NCBI GenBank assembly: GCA_964607485.1
Contig: CAZSKP010000014.1
Coordinates: 36,085-100,084 of the forward strand
Source: an uncultured bacterium
GTDB taxonomy: Bacteria; Abyssobacteria; SURF-5
Direction: 5' to 3'
Length of the DNA stretch: 64,000 bases
Below the pieces are notes generated by a model, which worked only from the letters and a program-made list of their open reading frames with translations, made no database searches and had not been told where the DNA came from. Positions 9,525-29,974 of the stretch are shown here, piece after piece (within the stretch, counting starts at the first letter, position 1; each line of letters begins with the position of its first letter). A program made the translations under genes and the position numbers.

Positions 9525-9540
9525 CGGGAGGCATGCGAGA

Positions 9541-10710: not shown

Positions 10711-10745
10711 TAATAGTGAGTCATCAAGGAAAGAGGAATACCCGG

Positions 10746-11621: not shown

Positions 11622-11641
11622 GACGTAAGTAATTGTGTTTT

Positions 11642-11682
11642 CAGCCACTTAGACACTGTTAATCTGAGTGGCTGTTTTCTTT
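11642..11682 (+). terminator. Rho-independent terminator-like hairpin after the second att copy
   Basis: CAGCCACTTAGA...TCTGAGTGGCTG followed by TTTTCTTT. Confidence 0.65.
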
Positions 11683-13112: not shown

Positions 13113-13113
13113 A

Positions 13114-16083
13114 TTATCCCTCCAAATCTATATTCAGGCTGCTAGTGAGGTTGACTGTTTCTCGTTTAGCTTCGTCAAAATCAAACCTTTCCACATGTTT
13201 CACAATGGGATATAGCTGATCCTGCAAGAGATATTTCTCAAGCTCAGACAAGAACGGTTGAATAGCGTATGGACTGAACTGGTCGAATGCAGCCAGCATT
13301 TCGGCGAAAAGCTCTTTCAAGCGAGGCACGTCCATTTCTTTCTTTGGCATTTCTTGCACGTCTTGTTCTGCTTTCAACTGTCCGATGGAAGCGACTGCAC
13401 TATTGAGTGCCGCAGCAAGCGCCGGGAGCCGGTCCTTTGCATCGCCAATGCGTTTCTTCTTGATGGCATCACTAATGTGGATTACGACATTAGCCACTTC
13501 TGTTATCCACAAATTGCCTGCCACCCCCTTAAGCGCATGGACATAACGGTAAGCGCCATCTGTATCGCCTTCGTCAAAAAAGCGGCTCAAATCGGCGGCA
13601 GCGTTGCCGTAATCGCACGAGAATACCAGCAATGCCTTAGCATAGGCTTCCGGATTCTGCCAGTGCTGTATGCCTTTTTCTATATCGACGCCATCAAGAG
13701 GTGGCAGTTCCAATACGGATTGGGGTCCGGTATCTGGTTGAATTTGCACAACCATTTCGCCCACGCCTTCCGGGACCACGTCTTCCATTGTTCTAAAAAG
13801 CTTGCTAAAATCGATCGGCTTGGCCACAACAGCATCCATTCCCGCTTCGAAACACTTGTCCTTTTCCCCTTTCATTATGCTGGCTGTTATGGCGATGACC
13901 GGCATATGTCCTCCGGTGCCGGCCTCCAGAGCGCGAATACGTGCCGTAGCCTCAAGCCCGTCCATTTCTGGCATCTGTACATCCATGAGAACGACATCGA
14001 TCTTCTCTCGCAAAAAAGCCTCCACGGCCTCACGGCCATTGCGGGCCACCGTAACCTTGTGACCCTGCTGCTCGAGGCGAATTTTGGCTAGGGCAACATT
14101 CGTTGCCATGTCTTCAGCCAATAATACCTTGAAACCTCGTCGAGAACTTGGCGAAACAGCTCTGCCTGGAACGACAAACAGATCAGCCTCTTCCGGAACT
14201 AGGTCGGTAGGGGTCATGTTGACCGTGAAATGAAATGTGCTTCCTTTACCCACCTCGCTCTCCGCCCAGATCCGGCCTCCCATCAGCTCAACCAACTCCC
14301 GCGCAATGGTGGTGCCCAGACCGGTACCGCCAAACCGGCGCGTAGTCGAAGTATCGGCCTGGGTAAACGGTTCGAATATCCGGCTCAACTCGTCAGTCGA
14401 GATGCCAATCCCCGTATCCTCGACCATGAAATGAAGTTGACCTTCCTCCTCAGCGGGAAGCAGTCGCATGGACACACTGCCCCTTTCCGTAAACTTGAGA
14501 GCGTTGCCCACCAGATTGATAATGATCTGCCTGAGGCGCAACGGGTCACCAATAAACGCTCCCGACAAAGATGGGTGAATATCAAGCTGCAGCCCAAGTC
14601 CTTTCTCCCGCGCTTTCATGTTCATCGTCGCATGAATTTCCTGCATCAATCGGAGTATACTGAAAGGACGATGTTCAATGGTCAACTTGCCGCTTTCCAT
14701 TTTGCTGATATCAAGGATATCGTCTATCAATCTCAGGAGACCACTAGCGGAGATTTGTGCGATAGTGAGATGCTTGCGCTGATGTTCCGGTAGCGATGGG
14801 TCTTCCAATACCAGTTCCAAGAAACCGAGAATGGTATTCATCGGCGTTCGAATCTCATGGGACATGTTGGCCAGAAAATTGCTCTTGGCCGCATTGGCCA
14901 TTTCGGCCTGGACAGTGGCGAGCTCAGATTTCTTGCTCGCCTCTTCCGCCTCCTCACGCGCCTTGACCAACTCCGTCACGTCAACGAAAGACGCGATGCC
15001 GCCTGTGACTTCACCCGAGGTGTCGCGAATAAGAGTGGCGTTCTTTAGAATCGTCAGGCGACGGCCATCCTTCGTGACGATCATGCATTGCCTGCGAAAA
15101 ATGGGCTCTTTGGACTCAAGGACACAAAGCCCGCACTCCATCATGCACGACTCGCCCGACAGAATATTGCAGTGTTGGCCAACTGCTTCTTTCTCGCTAA
15201 AGCCTGTCAGCCGGCAAAACTCGCGGTTGACACTGGTGATGGTCTTGTCAGCGTCAACCGTGAACATTGCGGTGGCCGCCGTATCCAGAATATGTTGCTG
15301 GAATTGGTTAATACGCAGGATTTCCGCACTCGCCTGTTCATGCTCAGCGGTCTGATAAGCCAAGCGCTGCGCCCCCAGTCCGATTCCAGACAGCCCGATC
15401 ATCAAAAACAGGGCATGGCCAATATATACCCCTCTAGTATGAGATTTCTTGATTGCCCACAGGGGTGCCATAGGTATTGAGATGCTTATTCCTCCACGTA
15501 TGTCTCCCTCCCGGTACCCTTGTACGGCATGGCATTGTAGGCACTCCTTTGTAGTAATTAATGGGCGCATCAAACGCATATAAGCCTTGCCTTCTATTTC
15601 TTCGATCGAACTAACTTCTTCCATTCCTTGTTCGAAAGCTTTTAAAGCCTGGATCTCCCAGGCGTCCGGCGCATTCTCCGGACGTATGGGATCAATGCTC
15701 GTAATATGGCCAATGGAACCATACTCTTCATGGCCCAACTCATGAACTTGGCGAGTCATATAAGCCGGATTGATTTTAGTCAGCCGGGTTCCCGAAGAAG
15801 TAGTGATTTCGCGCTCTGACGCCTTGAGGTAGGGATTAGGAGTTGCTATCTCAGATACCGGCACATAGACACCCCCATGTTTCGCATTCCATTCACGATA
15901 GACAACGTCTTTCTGATGCAGCGCTCTGGCCTCAGTGCGGGCCATAGAAAGGATTTCCTGTCTCGAAAGGTGGACATTCCAACCCAGTGATATCGCGACG
16001 ATAACTGTCCAAACTGCCGCCATGATCCAACCGACTCGCTTCCATTGAATCGGATACGCGCCTGTCCCTTCTAGCTTGTCCAT
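13114..16083 (-). CDS. Hybrid sensor histidine kinase: TM, DUF3365-like heme-c domain, PAS, HisKA, HATPase, REC, Hpt
   Basis: INPAYMTRQ and CLQCH between TM helices; FLANMSHEIRTP; GGTGLG; MDVQMP; VHALKGVAGNL. Confidence 0.92.
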   Translation of the reverse strand: MDKLEGTGAYPIQWKRVGWIMAAVWTVIVAISLGWNVHLSRQEILSMARTEARALHQKDVVYREWNAKHGGVYVPVSEIATPNPYLKASEREITTSSGTRLTKINPAYMTRQVHELGHEEYGSIGHITSIDPIRPENAPDAWEIQALKAFEQGMEEVSSIEEIEGKAYMRLMRPLITTKECLQCHAVQGYREGDIRGGISISIPMAPLWAIKKSHTRGVYIGHALFLMIGLSGIGLGAQRLAYQTAEHEQASAEILRINQFQQHILDTAATAMFTVDADKTITSVNREFCRLTGFSEKEAVGQHCNILSGESCMMECGLCVLESKEPIFRRQCMIVTKDGRRLTILKNATLIRDTSGEVTGGIASFVDVTELVKAREEAEEASKKSELATVQAEMANAAKSNFLANMSHEIRTPMNTILGFLELVLEDPSLPEHQRKHLTIAQISASGLLRLIDDILDISKMESGKLTIEHRPFSILRLMQEIHATMNMKAREKGLGLQLDIHPSLSGAFIGDPLRLRQIIINLVGNALKFTERGSVSMRLLPAEEEGQLHFMVEDTGIGISTDELSRIFEPFTQADTSTTRRFGGTGLGTTIARELVELMGGRIWAESEVGKGSTFHFTVNMTPTDLVPEEADLFVVPGRAVSPSSRRGFKVLLAEDMATNVALAKIRLEQQGHKVTVARNGREAVEAFLREKIDVVLMDVQMPEMDGLEATARIRALEAGTGGHMPVIAITASIMKGEKDKCFEAGMDAVVAKPIDFSKLFRTMEDVVPEGVGEMVVQIQPDTGPQSVLELPPLDGVDIEKGIQHWQNPEAYAKALLVFSCDYGNAAADLSRFFDEGDTDGAYRYVHALKGVAGNLWITEVANVVIHISDAIKKKRIGDAKDRLPALAAALNSAVASIGQLKAEQDVQEMPKKEMDVPRLKELFAEMLAAFDQFSPYAIQPFLSELEKYLLQDQLYPIVKHVERFDFDEAKRETVNLTSSLNIDLEG

Positions 16084-16089
16084 TGTTGT

Positions 16090-16361
16090 GCTTCCTTCAC
16101 TTTTTCGTCCAAGTCAGGAATGTGTTCTTTTTGGCAACTCGGGCAAAGGGTAATTCTGTCTTTAGATACGAGAAAGAAAATTCTAAATCTTAGCACCTGG
16201 TATAAAGGATGCTCTGCAAGATCGGAAGCATATTTGCTCCCAGTCTTTTCCTCGTTTCGATAAGCCTCCATCTTGGCGCAGCCGTTGACAAATAGGATTG
16301 CCGCCGTATCCAGTGTCGCTGGAGTTGGCTAATACGCAGGATTCCCGCATTCACCTCATGC
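16090..16361 (-). pseudogene. Probable relic of a paralogous PAS/sensor gene
   Basis: 16300-16361 is a degenerate copy, with small deletions, of kinase sequence 15275-15343; downstream remnant reads YQV...LCPSCQKEHIPDL. Confidence 0.45.
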
Positions 16362-16427
16362 CCCCCTCATCAAAAGAGATTAGGTAATTTGCGTAAATAC
16401 ACTTCACCCTCTCCCCCAACAAATAGA

Positions 16428-16496
16428 TGCATCATGCGTGCCATGTCCAGGCACCATTTCTGCAAGAAATCTCAAAGGCGATTTAACATATTGAAA
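16428..16496 (-). promoter_or_regulatory. Putative sigma-54 promoter with upstream IHF-like site for the kinase/HD-GYP operon
   Basis: Minus strand TGGCACGCATGATGCA (-24 GG/-12 GC spacing correct) at 16428-16443; TTTCAATATGTTA (one mismatch to WATCAANNNNTTR) at 16484-16496. Confidence 0.5.
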
Positions 16497-16732
16497 TAAC
16501 AGTTGTTACATTTAGGGGAACAGGGGCGGTCGGGGCTTGAATATAAATGGGTTGGGTGAGCTAGAATGTACATTATTGCTCGCTTTCTGCAAGCAATAAA
16601 GGATAATGCATTTTACCAAGAGTAAGATCGGGATAGAGTGCTCGGGGAGACATCTTCCACCCGTCCAATTATGGCGGTGATTGCCAGCTTGTGGCTGCAC
16701 AAGCCATGTCACGGCAATATGTTATAAATATC

Positions 16733-16781
16733 ACTGGGGGGGGCAAGAGGTCGCTGGTTCAAGTCCAGTCGCCCCGACCAC
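16733..16781 (+). repeat. Third, degenerate copy of the tRNA-Pro 3' end (att remnant)
   Basis: ACTGGGGGGGGCAAGAGGTCGCTGGTTCAAGTCCAGTCGCCCCGACCAC: G8 in place of G5T and one A>G change. Confidence 0.9.
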
Positions 16782-16795
16782 ATAACCATTTGAGC

Positions 16796-16829
16796 TGAGG
16801 CCGCTCAGAGAATCACCTGAGTGGCCTCA
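16796..16829 (+). terminator. Hairpin after the third att copy
   Basis: TGAGGCCGCTCAG...CTGAGTGGCCTCA. Confidence 0.55.
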
Positions 16830-17002
16830 TTCCTTCTGGATTTGACAAGTGCGGCCGTTATGGATCCTTAGTTGACAACCGACGAGAAGAATTGAACTCA
16901 GCGTGCGAGGTAATGCCGATTGGGTTCTTTCAAGTTGGCCTCGGGTCAGCAGTGGTACGGTTTTTCGGGGACAATCTATGACTTCTCCAGGCACCGGAGG
17001 GC

Positions 17003-18226
17003 CTAAGGCCCAATGTCACCAATTTCCTGTTCCCTTTCTTTGGCCCACTCAATTTGAGAATCCTTGATTCTGGCAGCGACTGTTTCTGCCGCCAAGCGAT
17101 GGCCTTCCGGCGACCAATGCGGGTCATTTTTCAGGAAGAGAGAAAAGGGTTCGGGATGACCACGGAAGATTGGGGTAAGATCTATGCATGGAACGTCCAG
17201 GGCGGCGCATACCTCCGCCAGACGTTTTGAGGGGCGGTCCCAGTCGATATCCTCTGACTCCGGATCCAACCCTGCATATCTGATACTGATGTCGAATATT
17301 TCCCTATCCGCATCCTCTTTTTTTGGAACGTAGAGCACGATTAAGCGTCCTCCACCTTCCATTGCCGATTCCTTCATGCGTGAAACCAAGAGACGCACCA
17401 CGTCCCAAGCAAGGTCCATCTCAGGAGAGGGAGGACCATAGATGTCCACTATCGAAAAATCCATTGCGTCTTTCTTTGCAGGCCCCACTTGAGAAGCATC
17501 ATCAGAAGGCTGATGCCTTGCCCTCAAAGCATTCGCCCGCCGTTGTAACTCGCGTTTGTCCTTCAGAATCCTCAGCCGGTACTCAATGAATCCGAATAGC
17601 CAGCTGTTATGACGAAACCACTGGGTTATCGGCGAACTGAGCACTTTCTTGACGGGTCGATTTCCTATCCGTAAGGTACCGTCCTCTGCAATCACGGCCA
17701 CGGGGCGCGTGCCCTGTTGGTCATCGAAGTTATCCCTGAGGTCGTTCCAGACAAAGGCAAGCATGGTCAGGTCGGGCTTATATCGCACGCCTTCCATCTG
17801 GAGACGCACTAATTCCTGCACAGTGCTATAACCGCTGACTCCCAGGTTGATGGTCTGAGTGTCAGGAATCAATTCCTGAAGAATCGTGGAAAATGTATCT
17901 TCGTTATCCACTCCGAATCCCCACATGAAACTGTCACCCAGCACAACGATGCGTCGGGTTCCGAGAGGCTTTGCGAAATCTTTCTCGCTGTCCCGGAGCC
18001 CCCGGCTGTTGTTAGCTACATGCACGTCGAATCCTCCCGGAAGAAAGAAGCGCGCATTAATATTGGGCAAACCCACCCACCCTGCATCAGGGTCGCTGCG
18101 GTGCAACTTCGCCGTCGAGATGACCATTATCCTGGGCTTCACAAGTCGTATGGCCCCTTCCAATATCAACAGGACAAGAATCGTGCTGATGACAACCAAC
18201 GAAAGACGTTCCACCCACTGTCTCAT
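17003..18226 (-). CDS. Membrane-anchored SGNH/GDSL hydrolase or acyltransferase-family protein
   Basis: N-terminal TM helix, NSRGLRD, VLGDSFMWG, NLGVSGYS, WND, DPHWSPEGH. Confidence 0.88.
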   Translation of the reverse strand: MRQWVERLSLVVISTILVLLILEGAIRLVKPRIMVISTAKLHRSDPDAGWVGLPNINARFFLPGGFDVHVANNSRGLRDSEKDFAKPLGTRRIVVLGDSFMWGFGVDNEDTFSTILQELIPDTQTINLGVSGYSTVQELVRLQMEGVRYKPDLTMLAFVWNDLRDNFDDQQGTRPVAVIAEDGTLRIGNRPVKKVLSSPITQWFRHNSWLFGFIEYRLRILKDKRELQRRANALRARHQPSDDASQVGPAKKDAMDFSIVDIYGPPSPEMDLAWDVVRLLVSRMKESAMEGGGRLIVLYVPKKEDADREIFDISIRYAGLDPESEDIDWDRPSKRLAEVCAALDVPCIDLTPIFRGHPEPFSLFLKNDPHWSPEGHRLAAETVAARIKDSQIEWAKEREQEIGDIGP

Positions 18227-18315
18227 AAGCTACGCTATCGTTCTTGTGTCGGTTAGTGGAAAGGATGTGCTTTTACCGATGATTATTATTGATATTACCG
18301 TCGCCATGAGCCTGC

Positions 18316-20175
18316 CTAATCCAACTCGAAGTCCTCTTTCCAATCGTGTGTTTCCTCCCACGTCGGCTGGGACGATTTGTCGAAGAGGTAATTCTCCATC
18401 ACGAGGTAATCCATTTCCGTCCGCATGAAACAACGGTAGGCTTCCTCGGGAGTGCACACGATGGGCTCGCCGCGCACATTAAAACTCGTATTGATCAGTA
18501 CCGGGCAGCCCGTGTGTTTCTTGAAGGTATGAACAAGTTCCCAATAGCGTTCGTTGGTCTCACGATTCACGGTCTGTATTCGCGCCGAGTAATCGATGTG
18601 TGTGACGGCCGGGATGTCGGAGCGGCGGTAATAGAGGCGCTCGAAAAGCGGCAGGTCGTGGTAACCATTCGGCAATGGGTTGAGGCGGTCGGCCCTTACC
18701 GGCGCGACGAGGAGCATGTACGGCGAAGGTCGGTCAAGCTCGAAATAGTCTGCGCAATCTTCTTCAAGCACGGAGGGCGCGAATGGCCGGAAACCCTCAC
18801 GATACTTGATCTTCAGGTTGAGTCGCTTTTGCATGTCGGGGTCTCGCGGGTCCCCGAGGATGCTACGATTGCCCAATGCCCTTGGGCCGTATTCCATGCG
18901 CCCCTGGAACCATCCGACAACGTTCCCTGCCGCCAAGAGCCGGGCTACTTCCTCACAGAGGAGTCGAAAATCCGGGTAATGGCGGTACGGCGCTTCGAAC
19001 CTTCGGGCAACGCGCACGATGTCGGCTGAGCCATACTCGGGCCCCAGCAAAGAGCCTTGCATTTCGTCATGTCCGGGTGTGGGACAGCGCTTCTCATCTT
19101 TCCATATGTGCCAGGCCGCCAGCGCAGCCCCCAATGCGCCGCCGGCGTCGCCCGCAGCCGGCTGAACCCACAGATTCTTGAAAAGCCCGCGGCGCAGCAG
19201 CTTCCCATTGGCGACACAGTTGAGCGTCACTCCTCCCGCGAGCGCGATATTATCCGAGCCAGTCAGTTCAAGTGCCGTGGATGCGAGTCGCAGAAAGATT
19301 TCCTCCGTCACGTGCTGTATTGCCAACGCGAGGTCCATGTAGGACTGAGTGAGTTGGCCATTCAAGGGTCGTGGCGGAATGCCAAACAGTGCCTCCCATC
19401 GGTCGTCGTGACACATGGTGAGACCGGTGGCATAGTTGAAGTACTCCATGTTCAACAGTATTGACCCGTCTTCGCGCAAGTCAACCAATTCGTCCAGAAT
19501 CTGTTGCCGATACCGTTTGGTCCGGTCACTCTCCGGGTTGCCATAGGGGGCGAGGCCCATGAGCTTATACTCGCCGCTGTTGACTCTGAAACCGCAGTAG
19601 TAAGTAAATGCAGAGTAAAGGAGCCCGAGAGAATGAGGAAAATGCAATTCCTTGAGAATCCGAATCTCTTTTCCGCTGCCCTTCCCGATAGTCGTCGTGG
19701 CCCACTCTCCTACCCCGTCGATTGTCAAGATTGCCGCTTCCTCAAACGGTGAAGGGAAAAAAGCACTGGCTGCGTGGGAAAGGTGGTGCTCGGGGAATAA
19801 TAGCGTTGGGTTGCCGTCACCCAGCTTGGCCAACTCCTTCTTCAAGAGCTGGCGCATGAGCAGTTTCTCCTTGATCCAAACGGGCATGGCCGAAAGGAAG
19901 CTCTGCAGCCCCTTTGGAGAAAAGGCGTGATAGGTTTCAAGCAGTCGTTCGAATTTGATGTAGGGCTTATCGTAGAACGCGACGGCGGTCAATTCGGCAG
20001 GAGTGACATTCCCCTCCGCGAGCACGTAAGCTGCCGCTCGAGTGGGAAATGAGGCATCGTACTTCTTCCTGCTGAAGCGCTCCTCCTGGGCTGCGGCTAT
20101 GATGTTGCCGTCAATGATCAATGCGGCAGCGCTGTCGTGATAGTAGGCCGATATGCCCAAAATTGCTGATCGCAT
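18316..20175 (-). CDS. O-carbamoyltransferase (NodU/CmcH/SxtI family)
   Basis: LGISAYYHDSAA, QEERFSRKK, HHLSHAASAF, DGVGE, EYKLMGLA, GPRALGNRSIL, LINTSFNVRGEPIV. Confidence 0.95.
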   Translation of the reverse strand: MRSAILGISAYYHDSAAALIIDGNIIAAAQEERFSRKKYDASFPTRAAAYVLAEGNVTPAELTAVAFYDKPYIKFERLLETYHAFSPKGLQSFLSAMPVWIKEKLLMRQLLKKELAKLGDGNPTLLFPEHHLSHAASAFFPSPFEEAAILTIDGVGEWATTTIGKGSGKEIRILKELHFPHSLGLLYSAFTYYCGFRVNSGEYKLMGLAPYGNPESDRTKRYRQQILDELVDLREDGSILLNMEYFNYATGLTMCHDDRWEALFGIPPRPLNGQLTQSYMDLALAIQHVTEEIFLRLASTALELTGSDNIALAGGVTLNCVANGKLLRRGLFKNLWVQPAAGDAGGALGAALAAWHIWKDEKRCPTPGHDEMQGSLLGPEYGSADIVRVARRFEAPYRHYPDFRLLCEEVARLLAAGNVVGWFQGRMEYGPRALGNRSILGDPRDPDMQKRLNLKIKYREGFRPFAPSVLEEDCADYFELDRPSPYMLLVAPVRADRLNPLPNGYHDLPLFERLYYRRSDIPAVTHIDYSARIQTVNRETNERYWELVHTFKKHTGCPVLINTSFNVRGEPIVCTPEEAYRCFMRTEMDYLVMENYLFDKSSQPTWEETHDWKEDFELD

Positions 20176-20316
20176 CAGCCACTTAGTTCTTCCCGCACGC
20201 TTCGAGCCGTGATTGCTTCCGGGCTGTTCCACATTGTTGCCGATCTTGAGGTACAAAAAGACAGGGGGATTTTCCTGGGGCAAGTACCACTGGTTCTCTA
20301 TAAGCGGAAGGCGGCA

Positions 20317-20466
20317 TCAGAATATTGTGTAAATAAAGGGGGCAATCGCCGAGCCACTGGTGAGGAGAATCAAGGCGCCGAACAGCAACAGACTCAGAAT
20401 GATCGGGAGCAACCAGAACTTCTTTCTGACTCTCAGATATCCCCACAAATCGCTCAGGAGCTCCAT
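20317..20466 (-). CDS. DUF5989 / SxtK-like small membrane protein (49 aa, absent from the ORF track)
   Basis: MELLSDLWGYLRVRKKFWLLPIILSLLLFGALILLTSGSAIAPFIYTIF; RKKxWLxP and APFIYT signature. Confidence 0.9.
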   Translation of the reverse strand: MELLSDLWGYLRVRKKFWLLPIILSLLLFGALILLTSGSAIAPFIYTIF

Positions 20467-20488
20467 AATCTTTTCCCACTTGGAGAAA

Positions 20489-20884
20489 CTAATAAGGTCG
20501 TTCGATATCTTCGGGTCCGTATCTATGGTCGCGCGTGGTAAAGACAGAGGTCTTTCCCTTTTTCCACTGATTCTTCCGCATAAGGTCGGAACCGCCCATC
20601 CGCCGCACCGCCCCCAGCGGAGTTACCACTCCGTAAAAGAGCACTGTCAGGACCACTCTTGAGACTATCGTACCCATCAGATGGGCAATACCAAACCAGA
20701 CTTTCGCCGGATAGAAGAAAAGGTTTGGCCACACCATATCAGCTACCAGGAGCAGCATCGCCAGAAGCAAGAACCTTGGATGCTCTCCGAAGTAAGCCAC
20801 GAAAAGGCAAATCAGGACTAATGCCATGCCTGTGTCTTTAGACTGGTCCCGACTTGTGATTTCGCTCGTGTTCCCTTTTCTCAT
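20489..20884 (-). CDS. SxtJ-family membrane protein
   Basis: KDTGMALVLI, WFGIAHLMG..VSRVVLT.LFY.VVTP.G, C-terminal DIERPY; adjacent to DUF5989 and carbamoyltransferase genes. Confidence 0.85.
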   Translation of the reverse strand: MRKGNTSEITSRDQSKDTGMALVLICLFVAYFGEHPRFLLLAMLLLVADMVWPNLFFYPAKVWFGIAHLMGTIVSRVVLTVLFYGVVTPLGAVRRMGGSDLMRKNQWKKGKTSVFTTRDHRYGPEDIERPY

Positions 20885-20926
20885 GAAAAGAAAAGTTTCC
20901 CCCCTTAGCCGAGGATTTGCGCGTAT

Positions 20927-20956
20927 ATTATATAGAGAGCTTCTGAAGCCTGTCAA
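20927..20956 (-). promoter_or_regulatory. Putative sigma-70 promoter for the sxtJ/K/I-like operon
   Basis: TTGACA-18 nt-TATAAT on the minus strand. Confidence 0.6.
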
Positions 20957-21215: not shown

Positions 21216-24200
21216 TCAGCTCGATTCATCCTGCGTCCTCGGGCTTGCATTCGAGCCGGGCGACAGCTCCTCTTTCCACTGCAGATACGTGCTGTAATAC
21301 TGCAGGATTTCCGATTCACATCCAGAGTCAACGGACGTTCCCTCAGGCTCGATGATCTCAATCGCTCCGGCGAATACCTCTCCACTGGAGCCGTTGATGC
21401 TGATGGCGTCCGTCTCCCCGAACGCAAGCGAATCGGCCTGCAAAATCCTCGCGTGCTCGTCGATGATCAGCCCCTGACACCCGGTGATGCACGGCTTGCC
21501 CATGCGACGAGAGTTGATTGCCGCGTGGGAGGTCATCCCGCCCTCTCGCGTGAGCACGCCCTTCGAGGATGCAATCCCGCCGATGTCCCTTGGAGTCGTG
21601 CGGTTCGCTACCAGGATAATGTCCTCGCCTGCCTGGGTTCGGATGATGGCGTCCTCACTGTTGAACGCGAGGTGGCCGGTGGCCACTCCCGGCGATGCGG
21701 GATTTCCCTTCGCAAGCAAATGTCTCGATGCGCTCGGGTCGAACATGGGGAGAAAAAGCTGTCTGAGGCCGGTCTCGTCGAGCCTCCCGACGGCTGTCTG
21801 CTGGTCAATGATACCTTCGTTGGCAAGCTCGACTGCAATTCTCAAAGCCGCCAAATCCGTCCGCTTCGCCGGCCGCGTCTGGAGCAGATAGAGCGCATTC
21901 CCCTCGACCGTGAACTCGATGTCTTGCACGTCGCGCAAGTGCGCCTCGAGCTTGCGTGCCACCGCCTCGAGCTCGCGAAACGTTTCCGGAAAACGATGTT
22001 CCAGCGAGAAAGAGGGGTCTGTGCCATCGCGTGCCGAGCTCAGCGGCAGCGGTTCGCCGTGGCCGCACACCAGCACCTCGCCTTGTGAACGCGGCAGATA
22101 CTCTCCGAAAATTTGGCGGTCTCCGGTTACGGGATTGCGCGAGAAGACTACTCCCGAGCACGATTCCGGGCAGAGGTTGCCAAACACCATCTGCTGGATG
22201 GTGGCCGCCGTGCAGAACTGGTGGGGGATGTTGAAAATCTGGCGGTAAGTGATGGCGCTGTCGCTCTGCCATGACAAGAATATCGCTCTGAGCGCCCCCA
22301 TGAGCTGTTCTCGCGGGTCCTGCGGGAGGGGAGCGCCGATGGCGTCCGCAACTCTCTTCAACAGGGTCTTCACCATCCGTTTCATCTCTTCCGCGGACGC
22401 GCACGCCGGATTACTCTCGGCAAGAGCCGGCTCGCGCGTGTCGGAATAGCCCATGACGGAGGAGGCGTACTTTGATATCAGCCTGAAATAGCACTCGTAC
22501 GCAAACAGAGAGTCACCGGTGATATGGGCCAAACCTTCGACTGTTTCGTCGTTAAGCCCAATATTCAAGACGGTGTCCAACATCCCCGGCATTGAAACGC
22601 ACGCGCCCGCCCGCACCGCCAGCAGAAGCGGCTTCTCCGGAGAGCCGAGCCTGCACCCGGTGATTTCTTCCAGCTCCTCGATGCTCTCGGACAGGAGCTT
22701 CTGGGTGCGGTTACACAAGACATGGCCGTCGGAGAAGAACATGTTGCACACTTTCGATGTGAGCGTAAACCCGGGAGGCACATTCAGCCCCAGCCGGGCC
22801 ATTTCGGCAAGGAATGCGCCTTTCTCCCCCAGTATCGGGTAATGCGCCACCTGCCCCTCGGCTGCTCCCGGCCGGAAGAAATAGGCGAGTTTGGCCGGGT
22901 CAACCTTTTTAGAGATTGCGTCCAGGTCGCGCCTGATTCGGGCCACCTTAATGGCGGAGATTTCCCTGATGGGCGGATGACGCACGCGCTTCATGAACTC
23001 GGCGATGCGCGCGCGAGAGAAATTGAGCAGCCTCAGCGTAAGCTCGGAAAGATGTTGCAGCGTCGTCTCGCGGAATAGGCCGTCCACGAACGCGCTCGCC
23101 GCCTCGTCGGCGTGCGGAATCTGGCGTGACGAAAGAATTTCGCGCGTGGTATCGTAATAGGTCTGAACGATCTTGTCCGTCGCCGCTCCTATCTCGGCGT
23201 TGATACGCTCGACGATCGAATAGACGGTATAGAAGTTGAGGTCGCTCGATTCCTTGAGCGCGAGGAGCTGCCTGCCGTAGTCTCTGATTTTCTTCGTGCA
23301 CTGTCCCTTGGCGCGCACGCTCAAAATCATCGAATGCATCACATCGATGGCCAGCGGAAGCGCCTCGACCGTGATGTCGGCCAGAATCACATTGCTCGCC
23401 TCGCCGTAGATAATGTAGCCGAGACGTTCGAGTGTCAGGTCGAGCCAGATGGCCTCCAGCGTTACCTCGATTGTCCGCGTTTGAACCAGCGGATTCTTGA
23501 TTGTGTCGCGCAGCGATATCCGCACCTCGCCGAGCATCAAGGCGGCGTTGAGGATGTCCCGCGCTCGCAGATACCCGATGAATCGCTCGAGCGATTCGAA
23601 CAGATGGGGGAAGAAGAGAGAAACCGCCTCGCGCCGCCATGAATCGATGAGGGCATGTATCTCCTCCGGCTCCTTTTTGTCTGCGCTTGTCAGCCCGGCC
23701 CTCAAGTTCTCGAAAAGTCGTTTGACATTGGGATTCTCTGCGTCGAGAATCGATTCTTCGAGCAGATTGACGAGAATCTCCACATTGGTTTCAATCAACG
23801 ATCTGTTCCGCTTCTCGATACTGCCGAGGAGATACCGAAGCTGGCTGTTGACCCGGGGCGATACAATCTGCGAAATGTTGCTGAGGAGTTGGTATATGTC
23901 TTCTACCCGGTCTTCGATGTTCCCCGGATGGGGCTCAAAAACATTTGCGAGTTCCCTCTCCAGCTCTTTCAACAAGCCGAGTATCGGCTGGAATTTGTCG
24001 GGGCGGTACTGAAACACTTTCTGATACTTGTTTATTGCGGTCAGAGGCTCGGAGTCGGCGTTCTCCACATAGGCGAGGAGCGCTCGCACGAGGTCGAGGT
24101 TGCGCGGAGAGAGCTTGCTGTGGATTTCTCCCCTGATATCCTCGGTGATGGGGGATGGGAACGCGTATTCTATCTCTTCGGCGAGCCCGCGCAACGCCCG

Positions 24201-24530
24201 AATCTCGTCTTGCGACGCGCCGAAGAAGGGCAGGCTCTTGACCAGTTGCCGCACGAGCAGATACATGTCGTCCGAGGACAGGTCTATGCACATCAGTTCT
24301 TCGAGCTTCTCGCGCATCTGCTTCGAGAGCGCAATGCTATCGGCCTTCTCGGCGAAGCCGCTGCCCCGGTAGCCGGCCAGGCTGCCCGTCTCAACGCGCA
24401 GATTCACGTTGAGCGCCTTGATGAGGTCGGTGCTGCCGAGCGGGTCGGAGACAATTCGCTCGATGCAGGCGAACACCTTCTCCCAGCTATTGATGGGCTC
24501 AAACTCTGATTCTTTGACCTCAACACTCAT
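21216..24530 (-). CDS. PPDK-derived dikinase: ~550-aa helical N-terminal region + ATP-grasp domain + swivelling phospho-His domain, no pyruvate-binding barrel
   Basis: GEKGAFLAEM, VPPGFT, AVRAG..SMPGMLDTVLN, QQMVFGN, QDIEFT, LQTR, GGMTSHAA; ends soon after the His domain; alternative start at 24560. Confidence 0.85.
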   Translation of the reverse strand: MSVEVKESEFEPINSWEKVFACIERIVSDPLGSTDLIKALNVNLRVETGSLAGYRGSGFAEKADSIALSKQMREKLEELMCIDLSSDDMYLLVRQLVKSLPFFGASQDEIRALRGLAEEIEYAFPSPITEDIRGEIHSKLSPRNLDLVRALLAYVENADSEPLTAINKYQKVFQYRPDKFQPILGLLKELERELANVFEPHPGNIEDRVEDIYQLLSNISQIVSPRVNSQLRYLLGSIEKRNRSLIETNVEILVNLLEESILDAENPNVKRLFENLRAGLTSADKKEPEEIHALIDSWRREAVSLFFPHLFESLERFIGYLRARDILNAALMLGEVRISLRDTIKNPLVQTRTIEVTLEAIWLDLTLERLGYIIYGEASNVILADITVEALPLAIDVMHSMILSVRAKGQCTKKIRDYGRQLLALKESSDLNFYTVYSIVERINAEIGAATDKIVQTYYDTTREILSSRQIPHADEAASAFVDGLFRETTLQHLSELTLRLLNFSRARIAEFMKRVRHPPIREISAIKVARIRRDLDAISKKVDPAKLAYFFRPGAAEGQVAHYPILGEKGAFLAEMARLGLNVPPGFTLTSKVCNMFFSDGHVLCNRTQKLLSESIEELEEITGCRLGSPEKPLLLAVRAGACVSMPGMLDTVLNIGLNDETVEGLAHITGDSLFAYECYFRLISKYASSVMGYSDTREPALAESNPACASAEEMKRMVKTLLKRVADAIGAPLPQDPREQLMGALRAIFLSWQSDSAITYRQIFNIPHQFCTAATIQQMVFGNLCPESCSGVVFSRNPVTGDRQIFGEYLPRSQGEVLVCGHGEPLPLSSARDGTDPSFSLEHRFPETFRELEAVARKLEAHLRDVQDIEFTVEGNALYLLQTRPAKRTDLAALRIAVELANEGIIDQQTAVGRLDETGLRQLFLPMFDPSASRHLLAKGNPASPGVATGHLAFNSEDAIIRTQAGEDIILVANRTTPRDIGGIASSKGVLTREGGMTSHAAINSRRMGKPCITGCQGLIIDEHARILQADSLAFGETDAISINGSSGEVFAGAIEIIEPEGTSVDSGCESEILQYYSTYLQWKEELSPGSNASPRTQDESS

Positions 24531-24549
24531 TCTGCCGTCAGATGCTCCC

Positions 24550-27500
24550 TCAGCGTTCATCCAGCCCGTCGAGCGCCGACAGCGTCCGCGTCGCCAGATA
24601 CTTCAAGGCCGCGCCGCCGCCCGTACACAAGGTAAACTTCTCCTTCGCCGCCTCGATTCCGCCCATGCGACGATTCACGGCGGCAACTCCGTCGCCGCCG
24701 ACCACGAGCTTTGCCTTGGCCGGGCACTGCGCGATGGCGTCCACAATCCAGTTTGTTCCCTCAGCGAATTGCTCCACTTCGTAGAGCCCGACGGTTCCGT
24801 TGTAGATGATCGTGCCTGCTTCAGCGAGAATGGCTTGAATCTCGCCCGCCGTCCTTGTGGCGGCGCCGTCGCTCGCGGCCGCAATATCAAACAGGTATGA
24901 ACCGAAAGGAATGCTTTCCGCATCAAGAACGCGCGAAGACACTCGCAGGAGCGGCCTGAACTTGTCGGGCAGCTCGAAGGCAACGTGCACGTCCTTGGGA
25001 ATCACGACCTTGACGTCGAATTCAGCCGCCAGCTCTATCAGCCTGTGGGCGGCCGCCACCTCGCGCTCGACCTCGAGCACGTCGGCACCCGAGAGCGAGT
25101 TGCCGGCCGACAGGCCGCTCGCAACGAGAAAGGCCGGGGATGCCGTCACAAATGTCTGAATGGCGCCATGGCGTATCATTGCTTCGACCGCGGGAATCTT
25201 TTCGCTTATCTTTACGCCGCTGACGAAAGCGACGACGGGCCGGCTGGCCTCGCGCAGTATTCCATCGAGAGTTTCAAGCTCGCTCCCCGTCAGCAAACCC
25301 AACACTTTATGCCCGTGGACGAGGTTCATCAGCGGCAGAAACGAGGCGTGAAGCCCGCGATGGGAGGCGCCGAACGCGCTGTTGACATAGTTAACCCGTC
25401 GCTGCGAGTCCGGGTCGAGATGGCCGAAGAGCGTGTCAAAAATGGCCTTCGCGAAATGCCGATTGCCCGACTCCTCTCCTTCGTGGAAACGCAGATTCTC
25501 GAGATAGAGAACCTGACCGGGCCCGAGGCCGCGCGCGAGTGACGCTGTCTGGGCATCGACGACGCCGGGCGCCATGAAGAAATCCCTCTCGGGAACAAGG
25601 ACATTCCGGTCCCGCAGTATTTCGGCGAACCGCTGGCCTGCAATCCTCAAACTGAACAGGTCAATGACTTGACCGTCCTCCGTCTGGAGGAACTGGAAAT
25701 CTCTCTTGCGCCCATTGTGCGACATCACAATGACTCTCGCGTTTCGCTTGATGAGGTGCGCAATGTCGTCCGCGCTTGCAAATATCCGATGGTCATCGAT
25801 GATTGAAGGTCTTATGGTGTTGGTGGCCGGGTCATAAAGCGGCTCCACGACGTTATGGTCAACCCGTACCATCCAGTACATGCCGTCGAACGCTTCGTCA
25901 GGCAGGTCGAGAAGCGAGGATTTCTTTGAATAGGGACTCTCGGATTTCGGGGGCACGTCGGGCACATAGGGAAATTGTGTGAAATCCTTCTGGTACGCCT
26001 TTTCCGCAGGCAGCATCACTTCTTCGAGGAATTCGACGTACATTTTCGACGGTCGCCACTCGTTTTCGTACCAGCCGATCAACTGGATGACGGTCATTGG
26101 CTCGCCGCTGGGAGCCACGAAATGGACGACCTCGACGTTCCTCTTACACAGCGTTACGCCCGCCTCCGCAAGCTCTCGCAGCAGTCTGATTTGCGTTGAG
26201 CGGTCGATTTCCTTGTCCCTGAGGAACTGAAATCTCTGATGGTCGCCCTCGCGGCATGCATCCTCCAGCACTTTGGCGGCAGCCTCGATATCATCAATCG
26301 TGTAATGTCCTCGGAGCACATAGGTGGGAGCCATGATGGAAACAGTTTCTATCGGGAACCGTATCGAGTACACCGGCGTGTGTGAAGTTCCCGCGGCGTC
26401 CACGAGAGCGGTGCTGGCGCTTGCGCCCGACGTCGTCTCGAAGATGTTTCCTGTCGCGTCGGTGCCGCGCCGTATGTCTTTCTTGTACTCTATCGGGTCG
26501 ATTATGTCGGGGCCGACGTGCTCGCCGGTGAGCGCGTGATAGGTCGGCCCGATTCCCTCGAGCACCATTGCGCCGGCAACCTCGTAGAATCCGTTCCAGT
26601 CAAACCGGCCCTCCTCGGCGCCGCGGTGCATTGCCACCTCGACGAGACGGTTCAGATTGGCCAGACATCCAGTCGTGCACGAGGCCGGGGAAAGAAAGTA
26701 ATGCTTCGCGGGATCATACTTGTGGTCATTGATGTGCCTTATGAAGGTGGCATCGCGCCACTCGTCTTCCTTGCTCGAGCCGGGCGCGGTGATCATTGCC
26801 CGCAGGGCGCCGGCGCGCCTGTGGCGGTTGACGCCGTCCAAGTTGTTGAAGCGGCCAGTCGCATCTATGGCGACGTGTACAGGCATCCCGGCCAGTATGA
26901 AGCATTTCCACGGATAGTTCGCCGGGTCTCTGAATACCGGGTGGCTGAACACGAGCGATCGCTTCCCGTCCAGCTCAATCCAATCACGACCGTATTGAAC
27001 GGTGCCCGGATAGCGACCCTGAACATAATCCTTCTCGTTCATCAGCTCGGCGAGGCGCTTGGCATCGGGGCCGCCCACCGCGATGACGCGCAGCGTGTCG
27101 CTCTTCGAGGCTATGCGGAACGTGCAGCTTCCCATGCGGCCGCCCGGAGCGTTGATGGTGATGTTGTACACTCCCGGCAGTGAGGGATACAGTATCGAGT
27201 TCGGCCTGCTGATGGTCTGCCATCGCTGTCGCTGTCCATCATACTGGTCGATCGACAGAAAGGTCACCCGGTCGAAGAGCTCCGTCTTCTCGTTGTAATC
27301 CAGGTGATGAACCCGGATGGTCGCCCGGAGCTTGTCGCCGTATTCGTATACATCATGTATCAGTATTTCCCAGTCGTATTCGCGGCTGAGCCGGAGCGCG
27401 TATTTGCGAAGCGCATCGTAGTATCGCCCCATCACATGATGCACATTCTCAAGCGACGCGGCGGTGAGCAGCGAAGTCGCGTACAGCTTGTGCCGGTTCT

Positions 27501-29838
27501 CGTGGAGCGCGACCATCGCGACAGCCTCTCCCGTCTCGTCACGCAAAACCTCCTGCAGGATGATAGGCTGCGACTCGAGGAAGAGCAGCCTCACAGCGTC
27601 CTCGGTCAATTCGCGGTCGGATACGCGGATCGTGCCCGTGCCCCCCATGGAGCCTGCGTACATGCGGGCTCGACGTTTCGTGGCGTGCGCCTGCGTTTTC
27701 TGTTCATACTTCCGGGCAAGACGCGGGATGTGACGCTTTGAAAAGTCGGTCTGTTGAGCGATGTCAAGCTTTGCCCAGTGACGGCTTGCCGCGGGCATAC
27801 CCGGCGTGAATGTGTCAGCCCTCTCTCCGAGCTCTCGCTTAAGAGAATGGCCGGCGATGAGGCGCAGCGCTTCCTCGACATCCGCCACAGCCTCGTCGAG
27901 GAAAAAGGCGATGCTCACCTGGGTGCCGGCATCGTTCTGGCTGACATAGACCTGGTTAGGGTCGAACATAATTCTGGAACTTCCGAAATTGAGATTCGAG
28001 GTCAACTGCACCCACCATTCGGGCAGGCTGAGCACTTCAAGTTCCTGCGCTTTCGCCTTGAAGAGCGAGATTATCCTCTCTCGCGAGAGCCTCGAATCGA
28101 CCACCGCGTTCAAGCGGAGAAGCTTGCCGCGCGGAATATTCGTCTTGAATTCGTTAGTGGCGAGCAGCTTTGTATCATCACCGGCCAGCCCCAGCATCCT
28201 CGCCACACCGGCGAAGCGCTTCGGATTCTTCTTATGGATGACCTGGTACACTCCGGCTACTCTGTATGTTGGCTGGACAACTGCCGGTTCGTCATGCTTC
28301 TCGACAATATCGGCTCCCAGCACAAAGATCTTCCCCATCTCGGAAAGGGCGGATATCCCGAGCGCATACGCAACTTCTTCGGCAGGCATGATGCCGAACG
28401 CGCTTCTTCCTTCAGGGTATTTCTCATTTAAGAGGGAGTGGACGGTCGCATCGTCACTTGTCTGTGTCCGAGCGACAACAAGTTGTGCCCCTTCTTTACG
28501 AATACGCTCCAGTAACTGCGGCTCAATCTTACGAGCGTGATCTTCGCTGATGAGGATATAGTCGATGCCCAAAGCCTTCCAGGGAAGGGACTCAAGAACG
28601 GCCGGCGCTTCGGTCAGGCTCCCGTGATACACACTGATGGCAGATTTCTGTTTGCCGATAGAAAGGAAGCCTTTCTCATCACCCTCGACCTCTTCATAGA
28701 TTCCAAGCTGCGAGTTGTACTTCAGCCACTGCATAATGTCTTTGGCTTTCTGCCCGACAAAGACCACTGCCTCCAGCTCATTGACATACGCGCTGCCGAT
28801 CCTGCGCAGAGCGGCGATAATGTTCTGGTTGTATCCGACAACCGCAATCCGGCGCGGTGCGTTTCCGGGTGAGAGATGCGCCAAGATACGGGAACGAATG
28901 GCCGCAAGATGTCCGGCCTCGAGCTCGAGGAAGGGCGATTCCGAAAGTCTGAACACATCGTAGAATTCATTCATCCCCGGAACAAACTTCGCTAACTCAT
29001 CCAGCGAGCGCTTCCTCTTTTCGGGATCCCTCTGAAAACGATCCAACTGAGCGAGAAGCCTGTCGATTTCGCGAACTTCCGTTACCGGCGCTATCCTCAT
29101 CCCTCGTTGCTCAATCAGTGCACGAACCGCGTCAAGCGAGGGATGGCCCACCTCCTCCATAACGTATGCTTCCTCGGAAAGTTCGGGGGTTTGCTTCTCG
29201 ACTCTTCTCGCCATCGCGGCGAGTGCACCCGACCGAGCCTGCATGTTAAACATGAACGAAGCTGCTTCCGACAGAATTCCTTCAGGCACGTGTCGATGAA
29301 CACTGGGACGATTGAAGTCGTCACAGAACTCGGCGAAAAGATGGTAAACGCCGTCTTCGCCGTCAAATATGTTCGTCCCGTATGCCGCCTTGAACTCCTC
29401 TGCAAGAGCTTCCTCCCCGATTCCTTCCCTCGCCATGAACTCCCGGAGCCCGGAGTGGAGAAGGGGAAAGAGTTGGAGGCGTCGCGCCATCCACTCGACA
29501 CCTTCGTGAACGAGCGTCCGGTTCAATACGCGGCGGCGACGATGCTGAAAGCTTTCGTTCGAGTTTTGAGCGGTTATCTCTGAGCGACAGATCCATTCGA
29601 GGAAGGAGTACGTGTCGAGGACATCGGAATAGATGATTCCCTGATTGTCGGCGAGTGTCGCTATAGGGAATTGTTCGAGGGCTGGTGCGAGATCTATGTC
29701 TTGAAGCGCCGGGTCGGCGCGCGCAGCTGTCTCCACAAGTCGATGAATGTAAGTTGAAGAGGGCCGGTGCAAAATTATCGGTATCTGAGAGAAGCCTTCG
29801 GGACGGGCGAGAAGCTCGGGTGGGCTTGGCAAAAGCAT
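24550..29838 (-). CDS. Giant fusion (~1762 aa): unknown N-domain + degenerate GAPDH-like domain + linker + divergent GAPDH + phosphoglycerate kinase
   Basis: Pseudo-GAPDH (~27850-28860): RIAVVG, LKYNSQLG, LPWKALGID. GAPDH (~26020-27175): INAPGGRMG, IDATG, ITAPG, ASCTTGCL, WYENEW. PGK (24550-~25920): VRVDHNV, SHNGR, LENLRF, AFGASHR, GGDG, TGGGA. ATG 29838 follows GAGGAG. Confidence 0.88.
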   Translation of the reverse strand: MLLPSPPELLARPEGFSQIPIILHRPSSTYIHRLVETAARADPALQDIDLAPALEQFPIATLADNQGIIYSDVLDTYSFLEWICRSEITAQNSNESFQHRRRRVLNRTLVHEGVEWMARRLQLFPLLHSGLREFMAREGIGEEALAEEFKAAYGTNIFDGEDGVYHLFAEFCDDFNRPSVHRHVPEGILSEAASFMFNMQARSGALAAMARRVEKQTPELSEEAYVMEEVGHPSLDAVRALIEQRGMRIAPVTEVREIDRLLAQLDRFQRDPEKRKRSLDELAKFVPGMNEFYDVFRLSESPFLELEAGHLAAIRSRILAHLSPGNAPRRIAVVGYNQNIIAALRRIGSAYVNELEAVVFVGQKAKDIMQWLKYNSQLGIYEEVEGDEKGFLSIGKQKSAISVYHGSLTEAPAVLESLPWKALGIDYILISEDHARKIEPQLLERIRKEGAQLVVARTQTSDDATVHSLLNEKYPEGRSAFGIMPAEEVAYALGISALSEMGKIFVLGADIVEKHDEPAVVQPTYRVAGVYQVIHKKNPKRFAGVARMLGLAGDDTKLLATNEFKTNIPRGKLLRLNAVVDSRLSRERIISLFKAKAQELEVLSLPEWWVQLTSNLNFGSSRIMFDPNQVYVSQNDAGTQVSIAFFLDEAVADVEEALRLIAGHSLKRELGERADTFTPGMPAASRHWAKLDIAQQTDFSKRHIPRLARKYEQKTQAHATKRRARMYAGSMGGTGTIRVSDRELTEDAVRLLFLESQPIILQEVLRDETGEAVAMVALHENRHKLYATSLLTAASLENVHHVMGRYYDALRKYALRLSREYDWEILIHDVYEYGDKLRATIRVHHLDYNEKTELFDRVTFLSIDQYDGQRQRWQTISRPNSILYPSLPGVYNITINAPGGRMGSCTFRIASKSDTLRVIAVGGPDAKRLAELMNEKDYVQGRYPGTVQYGRDWIELDGKRSLVFSHPVFRDPANYPWKCFILAGMPVHVAIDATGRFNNLDGVNRHRRAGALRAMITAPGSSKEDEWRDATFIRHINDHKYDPAKHYFLSPASCTTGCLANLNRLVEVAMHRGAEEGRFDWNGFYEVAGAMVLEGIGPTYHALTGEHVGPDIIDPIEYKKDIRRGTDATGNIFETTSGASASTALVDAAGTSHTPVYSIRFPIETVSIMAPTYVLRGHYTIDDIEAAAKVLEDACREGDHQRFQFLRDKEIDRSTQIRLLRELAEAGVTLCKRNVEVVHFVAPSGEPMTVIQLIGWYENEWRPSKMYVEFLEEVMLPAEKAYQKDFTQFPYVPDVPPKSESPYSKKSSLLDLPDEAFDGMYWMVRVDHNVVEPLYDPATNTIRPSIIDDHRIFASADDIAHLIKRNARVIVMSHNGRKRDFQFLQTEDGQVIDLFSLRIAGQRFAEILRDRNVLVPERDFFMAPGVVDAQTASLARGLGPGQVLYLENLRFHEGEESGNRHFAKAIFDTLFGHLDPDSQRRVNYVNSAFGASHRGLHASFLPLMNLVHGHKVLGLLTGSELETLDGILREASRPVVAFVSGVKISEKIPAVEAMIRHGAIQTFVTASPAFLVASGLSAGNSLSGADVLEVEREVAAAHRLIELAAEFDVKVVIPKDVHVAFELPDKFRPLLRVSSRVLDAESIPFGSYLFDIAAASDGAATRTAGEIQAILAEAGTIIYNGTVGLYEVEQFAEGTNWIVDAIAQCPAKAKLVVGGDGVAAVNRRMGGIEAAKEKFTLCTGGGAALKYLATRTLSALDGLDER

Positions 29839-29945
29839 AATCGCGCTCCTCAGATGTAACACGCCTATACTTTTGGCAGCACAATACTTATGCAATCCGC
29901 GTCACAACCTGAAAGGTGGGAGCGAACAGAATTCAGCCTACGGTA

Positions 29946-29974
29946 ATTTTACCCTCATTTCCGAGAATAGTCAA
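29946..29974 (-). promoter_or_regulatory. Putative sigma-70 promoter for the GAPDH-PGK fusion / dikinase operon
   Basis: TTGACT-17 nt-TAAAAT on the minus strand about 110 nt upstream of the start codon. Confidence 0.55.

Follow-up and report, generated by a model that had tools for sequence, protein, structure and literature searches.

We found two adjacent genes for remodelled glycolytic enzymes in a 64,000-nucleotide stretch of DNA (hereafter the window) from an uncultured bacterium of the Abyssobacteria (SURF-5; contig CAZSKP010000014.1 of assembly GCA_964607485.1, positions 36,085 to 100,084). The first gene encodes a giant protein that joins an active-looking glyceraldehyde-3-phosphate dehydrogenase (GAPDH) to a phosphoglycerate kinase (PGK) and carries a second, catalytically dead GAPDH in front of them. 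The second gene encodes a relative of pyruvate phosphate dikinase (PPDK) that lacks the phosphoenolpyruvate (PEP)/pyruvate barrel and has gained a large helical domain. We propose, and give the proposal as a whole about an even chance, that the giant is a covalent GAPDH-PGK enzyme built on a dead-GAPDH scaffold and that the dikinase is a regulator of partner proteins similar to the mycobacterial protein VadK, with the giant as one facultative partner. What is apparently new is that familiar enzymes are fused in an architecture not described before, with a pseudo-enzyme as scaffold, and that the barrel-less dikinase has a long form.

Gene layout and domain structure of the giant

Both genes lie on the reverse strand, with the giant gene upstream. 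The open reading frame (ORF) of the giant spans 24550..29895 and would encode 1781 residues from a TTG codon. The true start is likely the ATG at 29838, which is preceded by a ribosome-binding site, GAGGAG (29846-29851); the resulting gene (24550..29838) encodes 1762 residues plus the stop codon, and its product is identical to the database protein P0003. The dikinase ORF (21216..24560) would encode 1114 residues from the ATG at 24560. Here the likely start is the ATG at 24530, with AGGGAG upstream, giving a gene (21216..24530) for 1104 residues plus the stop codon, identical to P0015. Relatives of the dikinase align only from residue 12-18 of the 1114-residue frame. Residue numbers below follow the 1781-residue frame (P0001) for the giant and the 1114-residue frame (P0002) for the dikinase. 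The giant ends with the TGA at 24552-24550, which leaves an intergenic gap of 19 bp, and choosing the ATG at 24560 for the dikinase would produce an 11-nt overlap with the giant. The original prediction, made from the DNA letters and their translated ORFs, had described two co-oriented genes with these two alternative spacings, and the ORFs and the stop codon agree with it. Because full-length orthologues with 65-89% identity occur in independent assemblies, the giant is not an artefact.

A Pfam search of the giant returned Gp_dh_N at residues 912-1018, a weak Gp_dh_C match at 1131-1215 and PGK at 1336-1768, and no match for residues 1-910. The GAPDH module (residues 911-1300; 25996..27165), which is also recognised by NCBIfam, looks active. 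Its Gp_dh_N score is 44.3 bits, above the cut-off of 31.7 for this Rossmann-domain model, and its Gp_dh_C score is 20.2 bits, below the cut-off of 24.4. In alignments with solved GAPDHs, SCTTGC pairs with SCTTNC and HALTGE with HAYTGD, and the arginines are in place. Of 14 aligned giants, 12 retain C1073 (codon 26677-26679), H1120, T1123, R1143 and R1179, and the GAPDH catalytic residues are invariant in a 10-sequence alignment (A4). We take these residues to have the roles that they have in other GAPDHs, namely those of the catalytic cysteine, the histidine and the anion-site arginines. Compared with solved GAPDHs, the module contains two insertions, and its glycine-rich loop reads PGGRMGS. 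It is the most conserved module of the giant, sharing 83% and 80% identity with orthologues and 40% with the Omnitrophota giants described below. Judged by its sequence, the module is a divergent member of the type I GAPDH superfamily and not an equivalog.

The PGK module (residues 1336-1781; 24553..25890) scores 199.4 bits against PF00162 (cut-off 27). The match covers model positions 6-377 of 379, and the module aligns to solved PGKs across their whole length. The motifs DDHRI, SHNGR, ENLRF, AFGASHR, GVKISEKI, NGTVGLYE and TGGGA are all present and are kept in the close family; they represent the basic patch for 3-phosphoglycerate (3PG) and the nucleotide motifs of PGK.

Residues about 349-680 (27856..28851), within the part that Pfam leaves blank, are a degenerate but full-length duplicate of GAPDH that is catalytically dead, on three lines of evidence. 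An hhalign comparison with the active-looking GAPDH module gave a probability of 91.8% (E 7.3e-7). A five-sequence profile of the duplicate (A5) yielded 27 matches at E<=1 among PDB sequences, all of them GAPDH or erythrose-4-phosphate dehydrogenase (E4PDH), the best being 6fzi_A (E 6.6e-7, chain residues 3-326). In this profile alignment, an alanine occupies the position of the catalytic cysteine and the histidine is absent. A Foldseek search with the predicted model also retrieved GAPDH chains (E about 4e-9). Searched as a single sequence against the PDB, the N-terminal 891 residues gave no match.

The duplicate is flanked by two further regions. A predicted, mostly helical domain at the N-terminus (residues 20-330; 28906..29838), with a predicted local distance difference test score (pLDDT) mostly of 75-90 for residues 30-300, sits where triose-phosphate isomerase (TIM) stands in the Omnitrophota relatives. 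It is the least conserved module of the giant, with 52% and 45% identity to P0005 and P0011, respectively, and is weakly common to P0155 and P0156. On the other side of the duplicate, residues 681-910 (27166..27855) comprise a helical linker together with a small domain of the alpha/beta type; the model places strands and helices at 736-881 (pLDDT 55-87). This region is conserved among giants and is weakly repeated in P0144.

The genome to which the window belongs (4.7 Mb, 97.5% complete) also carries ordinary adjacent gap and pgk genes, to which the modules of the giant, GAPDH included, are only 33% identical. It further carries a full-length PPDK of 957 residues, 43% identical to the dikinase. 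Since the ordinary gap, pgk and PPDK genes are kept, the giant and the dikinase are an accessory, specialised set and not the housekeeping pathway.

Relatives of the giant in other bacteria

When the N-terminal 891 residues of the giant were compared by phmmer with 1.84 billion representative proteins, 22 matches were returned. These are close relatives, fragments, and proteins of 1661-2680 residues with a colinear core of dead GAPDH, linker and active GAPDH, accompanied or not by PGK and other glycolytic domains. P0014 and P0144-P0151 each gave one colinear match, which spans residues about 250-1300 or 250-1780. We scanned 13 of the 22 matches with Pfam to obtain their architectures, in which X denotes the core region between domains. 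TIM-X-GAPDH-PGK was found in P0145, P0149 and P0151, with an enolase added at the end in P0146 (TIM-X-GAPDH-PGK-enolase). P0144 and P0148 have a class II fructose-bisphosphate aldolase (FBA) in FBA-TIM-X-GAPDH, P0147 has a phosphofructokinase (PFK) in PFK-X-GAPDH, P0150 is TIM-X-GAPDH, and P0155 and P0156 are X-...-PGK-TIM. These proteins come from Omnitrophota and other metagenomes. Together they make up a rare family of bacterial megaproteins, fused from glycolytic or gluconeogenic enzymes, of which the giant is a reduced member. Of 201 Omnitrophota genomes sampled, 2 yielded the family, and the giant is present in 3 of the 10 genomes of the window's own family. A metagenome scan gave only 2 loci, and a pattern scan of viral contigs with the family alignment gave no relative; another pattern scan, with alignment A1, gave 600 pattern matches and no relative.

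In one Omnitrophota genome (G041, contig C6), two adjacent giant genes encode seven activities (L045:10199-19999 and L029:8738-15220). The first frame, of about 3300 residues (3304, of which the first 3267 were scanned with Pfam), contains class II FBA, a cupin-type glucose-6-phosphate isomerase (GPI), PFK and a complete PEP-synthase-like dikinase. The gene directly downstream encodes a protein of 2160 residues with the order TIM-X(dead GAPDH)-GAPDH-PGK. Thus, a dikinase also adjoins a TIM-X-GAPDH-PGK giant in another phylum. Just upstream of the first frame lies a gene for a protein of at least 2787 residues with many unrelated domains.

Another Omnitrophota genome (G149, L059:101-15414) has a cluster of three large neighbouring genes, encoding 2021, 923 and 2104 residues. 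The 2021-residue protein combines a 6-phosphogluconolactonase/GlcN6P-isomerase-like domain with a class V fructose-bisphosphatase (FBPase_3), the 2104-residue protein is GAPDH-like-PGK-TIM, and their 923-residue neighbour has no Pfam match. This cluster looks gluconeogenic. Genes for IlvD/Edd and a thiamine pyrophosphate (TPP) enzyme come after it. Unannotated proteins encoded next to the Omnitrophota giants (923, 505, 556 and 403 residues) resemble neither the dikinase nor the giant of the window.

Two other relatives deserve a comment. P0014 (2199 residues, from a metagenome) is 47% identical to the giant over residues 261-1781 and has about 650 extra N-terminal residues that start with a hydrophobic, signal-peptide-like segment, which is odd for a glycolytic enzyme. 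P0013 (1035 residues) tracks the giant family to about residue 1010 and then continues as unrelated sequence, which points to a frameshift or a misassembly within the GAPDH module.

The barrel-less dikinase

The C-terminal half of the dikinase (residues 557-1076; 21333..22892) consists of the PPDK nucleotide-binding domain and the phosphohistidine swivel domain, with His1012 (codon 21525-21527) in the motif GGMTSH. Pfam recognised PPDK_N (PF01326) and the PEP-utilizers mobile domain (PF00391), and it found neither PEP-utilizers_C (PF02896) nor any match for residues 1-555. The C-terminal half aligns colinearly with residues 10-515 of a solved PPDK of 874 residues (E 1.4e-118). GGMTSH is intact in the alignment to solved PPDKs, including the threonine to which the original prediction had drawn attention. 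The dikinase covers positions 2-514 of the 865 positions of TIGR01828, with a score of 537.7 bits against a cut-off of 843.45, and ends 38 residues past the matched part, where the PEP/pyruvate barrel would begin. Because the chain stops there, the dikinase lacks a defining feature of a PPDK; the barrel is lost and the protein therefore cannot make PEP on its own. The Pfam and NCBIfam searches thus agree with the initial naming of the two proteins as a GAPDH-PGK giant and a barrel-less dikinase.

Residues 11-555 (22896..24530) are predicted to form an all-helical domain of 24 helices (pLDDT 83.5). Homologues of this domain were found only in the long-dikinase family, which includes a distant member from a Victivallales metagenome-assembled genome (P0104) with the same architecture and a homologous N-terminal domain. 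A phmmer search of the domain against the PDB gave chance-level matches only, a Foldseek search of its model against the PDB gave nothing at E<=0.001, and a comparison with a protein atlas gave no usable match. A wide fold search returned generic four-helix bundles with a best Z of 11.5, below the meaningful level for helical folds. Of the large domains that had been noted as unexplained in both proteins, that of the giant is now largely accounted for by the dead GAPDH duplicate, and that of the dikinase can be described as helical, with no informative fold match. A domain common to the N-terminal parts of the two proteins was considered and rejected (hhalign probabilities 0.5% and 0.1%).

The genome with the pair also has further paralogues of the PEP-utilizer type. 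Three neighbouring frames of 875-899 residues on contig C2 of G000 (about 147700-154600) match the phosphohistidine part of the dikinase model.

Conservation of the gene pair

Genomic context was readable for a minority of the family members. Within the close family, the giant could be read in its context in three genomes (G000, G006 and G004). In each of them the dikinase gene comes immediately after the giant gene, no more than a few tens of bases away, and the pairing persists down to 65% protein identity. The expectation of an operon-like pair of remodelled glycolytic enzymes is in line with this conservation. The frameshifted giant P0013 and the dikinase P0018, whose contigs have the same length, suggest a fourth adjacent case.

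A consensus scan of the region found no promoter-like site at the junction of the two genes. Upstream of the giant, a candidate sigma-70-like promoter, TTGACT-17-TAAAAT (29946..29974, reverse strand), matches the consensus at 10 of 12 positions. The predicted promoter is therefore there as a motif, but it is weak evidence because the 10-kb region contains 7 promoter-like sites, compared with 3.6 +/- 1.9 in shuffled sequences.

Signalling genes recur upstream. In G004 (L027:16172-18876), a dCache histidine kinase gene and two REC genes directly precede the giant-dikinase pair. In G007 (L025:3101-13136), dCache kinase genes and REC-only genes, four of the latter, directly precede a dikinase gene that stands alone. 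A signalling link to the dikinase is possible. The array in G007 as a whole comprises seven REC-only genes, three kinase genes and a gene for a REC-fused transporter of the Na/sulfate type.

Proposed function and alternatives

From its conserved residues, the giant would interconvert glyceraldehyde-3-phosphate and 3PG, and the fused GAPDH and PGK sites may pass 1,3-bisphosphoglycerate (1,3-BPG) directly between them. GAPDH works as an oligomer, and for this reason we infer that the dead duplicate probably serves as a built-in partner subunit for the oligomer of the active GAPDH, forming a pseudo-dimer. By analogy with VadK, the dikinase would most likely autophosphorylate on His1012. Its helical N-terminal domain would hold partner proteins, which the phosphorylated dikinase may act upon or regulate. 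The giant would be one facultative partner, coupled to the dikinase physically or through regulation. The flux through the giant may be glycolytic or gluconeogenic; the FBPase of the G149 cluster, the PPDK genes beside the dikinase in L049 and L050 and the reported Wood-Ljungdahl autotrophy of the lineage are cues for the gluconeogenic direction.

Several observations weigh against this proposal. The GAPDH module scores 115.3 bits against TIGR01534, far under the equivalog cut-off of 367.2, and because of this low score and the altered glycine-rich loop its activity or cofactor use could differ from that of ordinary GAPDHs. The predicted model of the N-terminal part of the giant has a mean pLDDT of 60.9, that is, low confidence. 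The analogy between VadK and the dikinase is one of architecture, and the VadK-looking NCBIfam model NF004531 is non-discriminating, with scores of 424.5 for the dikinase and 501.8 for the full-length PPDK of the same genome. In addition, a long dikinase without a giant was found in five readable contexts. The gene upstream of it belongs to the REC and dCache kinase array in G007, is a divergent radical-SAM gene in G009, a divergent canonical PPDK gene in L049 and L050, and dnaG in L060, the context of the distant Victivallales homologue. G003 was left out of this count, as only 615 bp of its contig precede the dikinase. In a quick maximum-likelihood tree of 30 rows, the long dikinases form one clade (SH-aLRT 100), within which the giant-linked ones fall into three separate subclades, and linkage requires at least three changes. 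These changes and the five giant-less contexts mean that the coupling is not obligatory. The expected co-occurrence and synteny thus hold in one direction, with the giant always beside a dikinase (3/3) and the dikinase also occurring without a giant. Linkage is conserved where the giant exists, yet the dikinase is an independent gene and the linkage is facultative.

The same distribution could also fit the absence of a functional link. The two genes would then be independent lineage-specific paralogues that are neighbours by descent in part of one family, each working alone, the giant being an extra GAPDH-PGK and the dikinase a kinase for an unrelated target or a phosphodonor in the neighbouring histidine kinase and REC arrays. 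The giant-less contexts, the three label changes on the tree and the array directly upstream of the dikinase in G007 are in favour of this explanation, as is the presence of the long dikinase in 6 of the 10 family genomes, compared with 3 of 10 for the giant. We consider it unlikely, given the dikinase gene that follows the giant gene in 3/3 close-family contexts, at a short distance and with no promoter-like site between them. Survival of the pairing to 65% protein identity and the recurrence of a dikinase beside a related giant in another phylum also argue against mere descent.

A gluconeogenic module leading from pyruvate to triose is, in our judgement, quite improbable. Here the dikinase and the giant would run in the upward direction, another protein such as the canonical PPDK would provide the missing barrel in trans, and ATP-consuming PEP formation would be coordinated with PGK and GAPDH in an autotroph that builds sugars from acetyl-CoA. 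Such a module could explain the complete dikinase that is fused or adjacent to the GAPDH-PGK giants in Omnitrophota G041, the FBPase_3 in the G149 giant cluster, and the long dikinases that divergently adjoin a canonical PPDK of 957 residues in two metagenome loci (L049:4828-11273 and L050). The description of the Abyssubacteria, in the portions available to us, reports the Wood-Ljungdahl pathway, which also speaks for the module, and those portions do not mention the giant or the dikinase (PMC6121073). Against it, neither a phosphoglycerate mutase nor an enolase turned up in the Pfam scan of 40 other ORFs of the window. The dikinase of G041 belongs to the PEP-synthase type and shares just 23% identity with that of the window, so the dikinase-giant adjacency there may be convergent. 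To our knowledge, there is no precedent for a PPDK barrel acting in trans.

The original prediction had assumed that GAPDH-PGK makes ATP locally and that the dikinase spends it on phosphorylating a polymer or a protein, for example in the mobilisation of storage glucan; this would resemble the action of glucan water dikinase. The adjacency of the two genes and the replacement of the barrel by a large extra domain that could bind an acceptor are compatible with this model, as is, in a single weak observation, a gene for glycogen phosphorylase some 6 kb away from the distant dikinase homologue of L060. Glucan water dikinase has carbohydrate-binding modules in its non-catalytic region. In the N-terminal domain of the dikinase Pfam found nothing, carbohydrate-binding or otherwise, and the fold of this domain matches only generic helical bundles (best Z 11.5), so a polymer or glucan acceptor finds no support there. 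Glycogen genes, which had been suggested as a check, are absent from the 40 neighbouring ORFs scanned, and the dikinase occurs without the giant. We therefore regard the model as very unlikely.

Least probable of all is that the two proteins form one machine, in which the phosphohistidine domain would swap phosphoryl groups with the acyl-phosphate chemistry of GAPDH-PGK and so couple triose-phosphate redox to ATP + Pi <-> AMP + PPi in place of the ordinary ADP/ATP couple; if true, this would amount to a dikinase reaction not known before and a novel means of conserving or spending energy at the 3PG/1,3-BPG step. More broadly, the giant family would then stand for covalent metabolons of glycolysis in bacteria.

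Other genes in the window

No glycolytic enzyme was found among 40 other ORFs of the window scanned with Pfam, as had been noted from the sequence for the vicinity of the pair. A perfect TTGACA-18-TATAAT (20956-20927), a consensus match only, precedes the next gene downstream of the dikinase. The genes at 17003-20956 seem to form a unit of their own, distinct from the giant-dikinase pair; their products are an SxtJ-like small protein, a carbamoyltransferase and an SGNH/AlgX-like hydrolase. Positions 8000-18000 have a G+C content of 0.48-0.52, compared with 0.55-0.63 elsewhere in the window, and are preceded by a tRNA-Pro gene (7818-7894). They include genes for a ParB-N/DNA methylase, a spore-photoproduct-lyase-like protein, a hybrid histidine kinase and a REC-HD protein, and may be an acquired island. 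At 47506-52345, a BcrAD/BadFG-type activator and two HGD-D subunits make up a 2-hydroxyacyl-CoA dehydratase-like set, which adjoins genes for a CbiA/MinD-like ATPase and a CdhC-like protein.

Comparison with known systems

Fusions of two consecutive glycolytic enzymes are not new. Thermotoga has a PGK-TIM fusion of two enzymes, to which the NF010569 model corresponds. A TPI-GAPDH fusion is described for stramenopiles (PMC3527533). As far as the available account of the latter goes, both also join consecutive glycolytic enzymes, but they are simple two-domain fusions, whereas the megaprotein family adds a dead GAPDH module and reaches at least four enzyme domains per chain. In giant viruses, a fused G3P (GAPDH) and PGK gene occurs in 16 metagenome-assembled genomes, and the passages of that report available to us call the architecture unreported in cellular lineages (Moniruzzaman et al. 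2020, PMC7136201). The viral fusion and the giant both place the consecutive GAPDH and PGK steps in one polypeptide. Judged by the same passages, the giant differs in being bacterial, in its 1762 residues, and in its extra dead GAPDH duplicate and helical domain. We found no description of bacterial GAPDH-PGK fusions or of multi-enzyme glycolytic giants in the full-text literature, a search that left subscription journals largely outside its scope. The giant family provides cellular examples of the GAPDH-PGK fusion architecture. It has long been debated whether glycolytic enzymes assemble physically and pass intermediates to one another, and here the enzymes are fused covalently. The giants would be natural test objects for the channelling of the labile 1,3-BPG and for scaffold roles of pseudo-enzymes.

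The dikinase resembles canonical PPDK (1kbl and 9pzl) in its 42-48% identity to bona fide PPDKs and in the conserved GGMTSH. It is unlike them in being without residues about 535-874, the PEP/pyruvate TIM barrel, and in having an additional N-terminal domain of 545 residues. VadK (Rv1127c) of Mycobacterium tuberculosis appears to be its closest described analogue. According to the portions of the VadK report at hand, this barrel-less PPDK autophosphorylates its catalytic histidine with ATP and Mg, and it pulls down, interacts with and tunes enzymes of the methylcitrate cycle (PMC13400623). As described there, VadK and the dikinase have in common the PPDK nucleotide-binding and phosphohistidine domains, the catalytic histidine motif and the absence of the PEP/pyruvate barrel, and VadK acts on or with metabolic enzymes and not on pyruvate. 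The same portions give VadK a size of about 50.5 kDa and describe no extra N-terminal domain, whereas the dikinase carries its 545-residue helical domain; the partners of VadK named in them are methylcitrate-cycle enzymes and not GAPDH-PGK. The truncations of VadK and of the dikinase are probably independent. By this analogy, the dikinase may extend the idea put forward for VadK in 2026, that of a PPDK cut down to a regulatory histidine kinase, to other phyla and to a form with an added helical domain.

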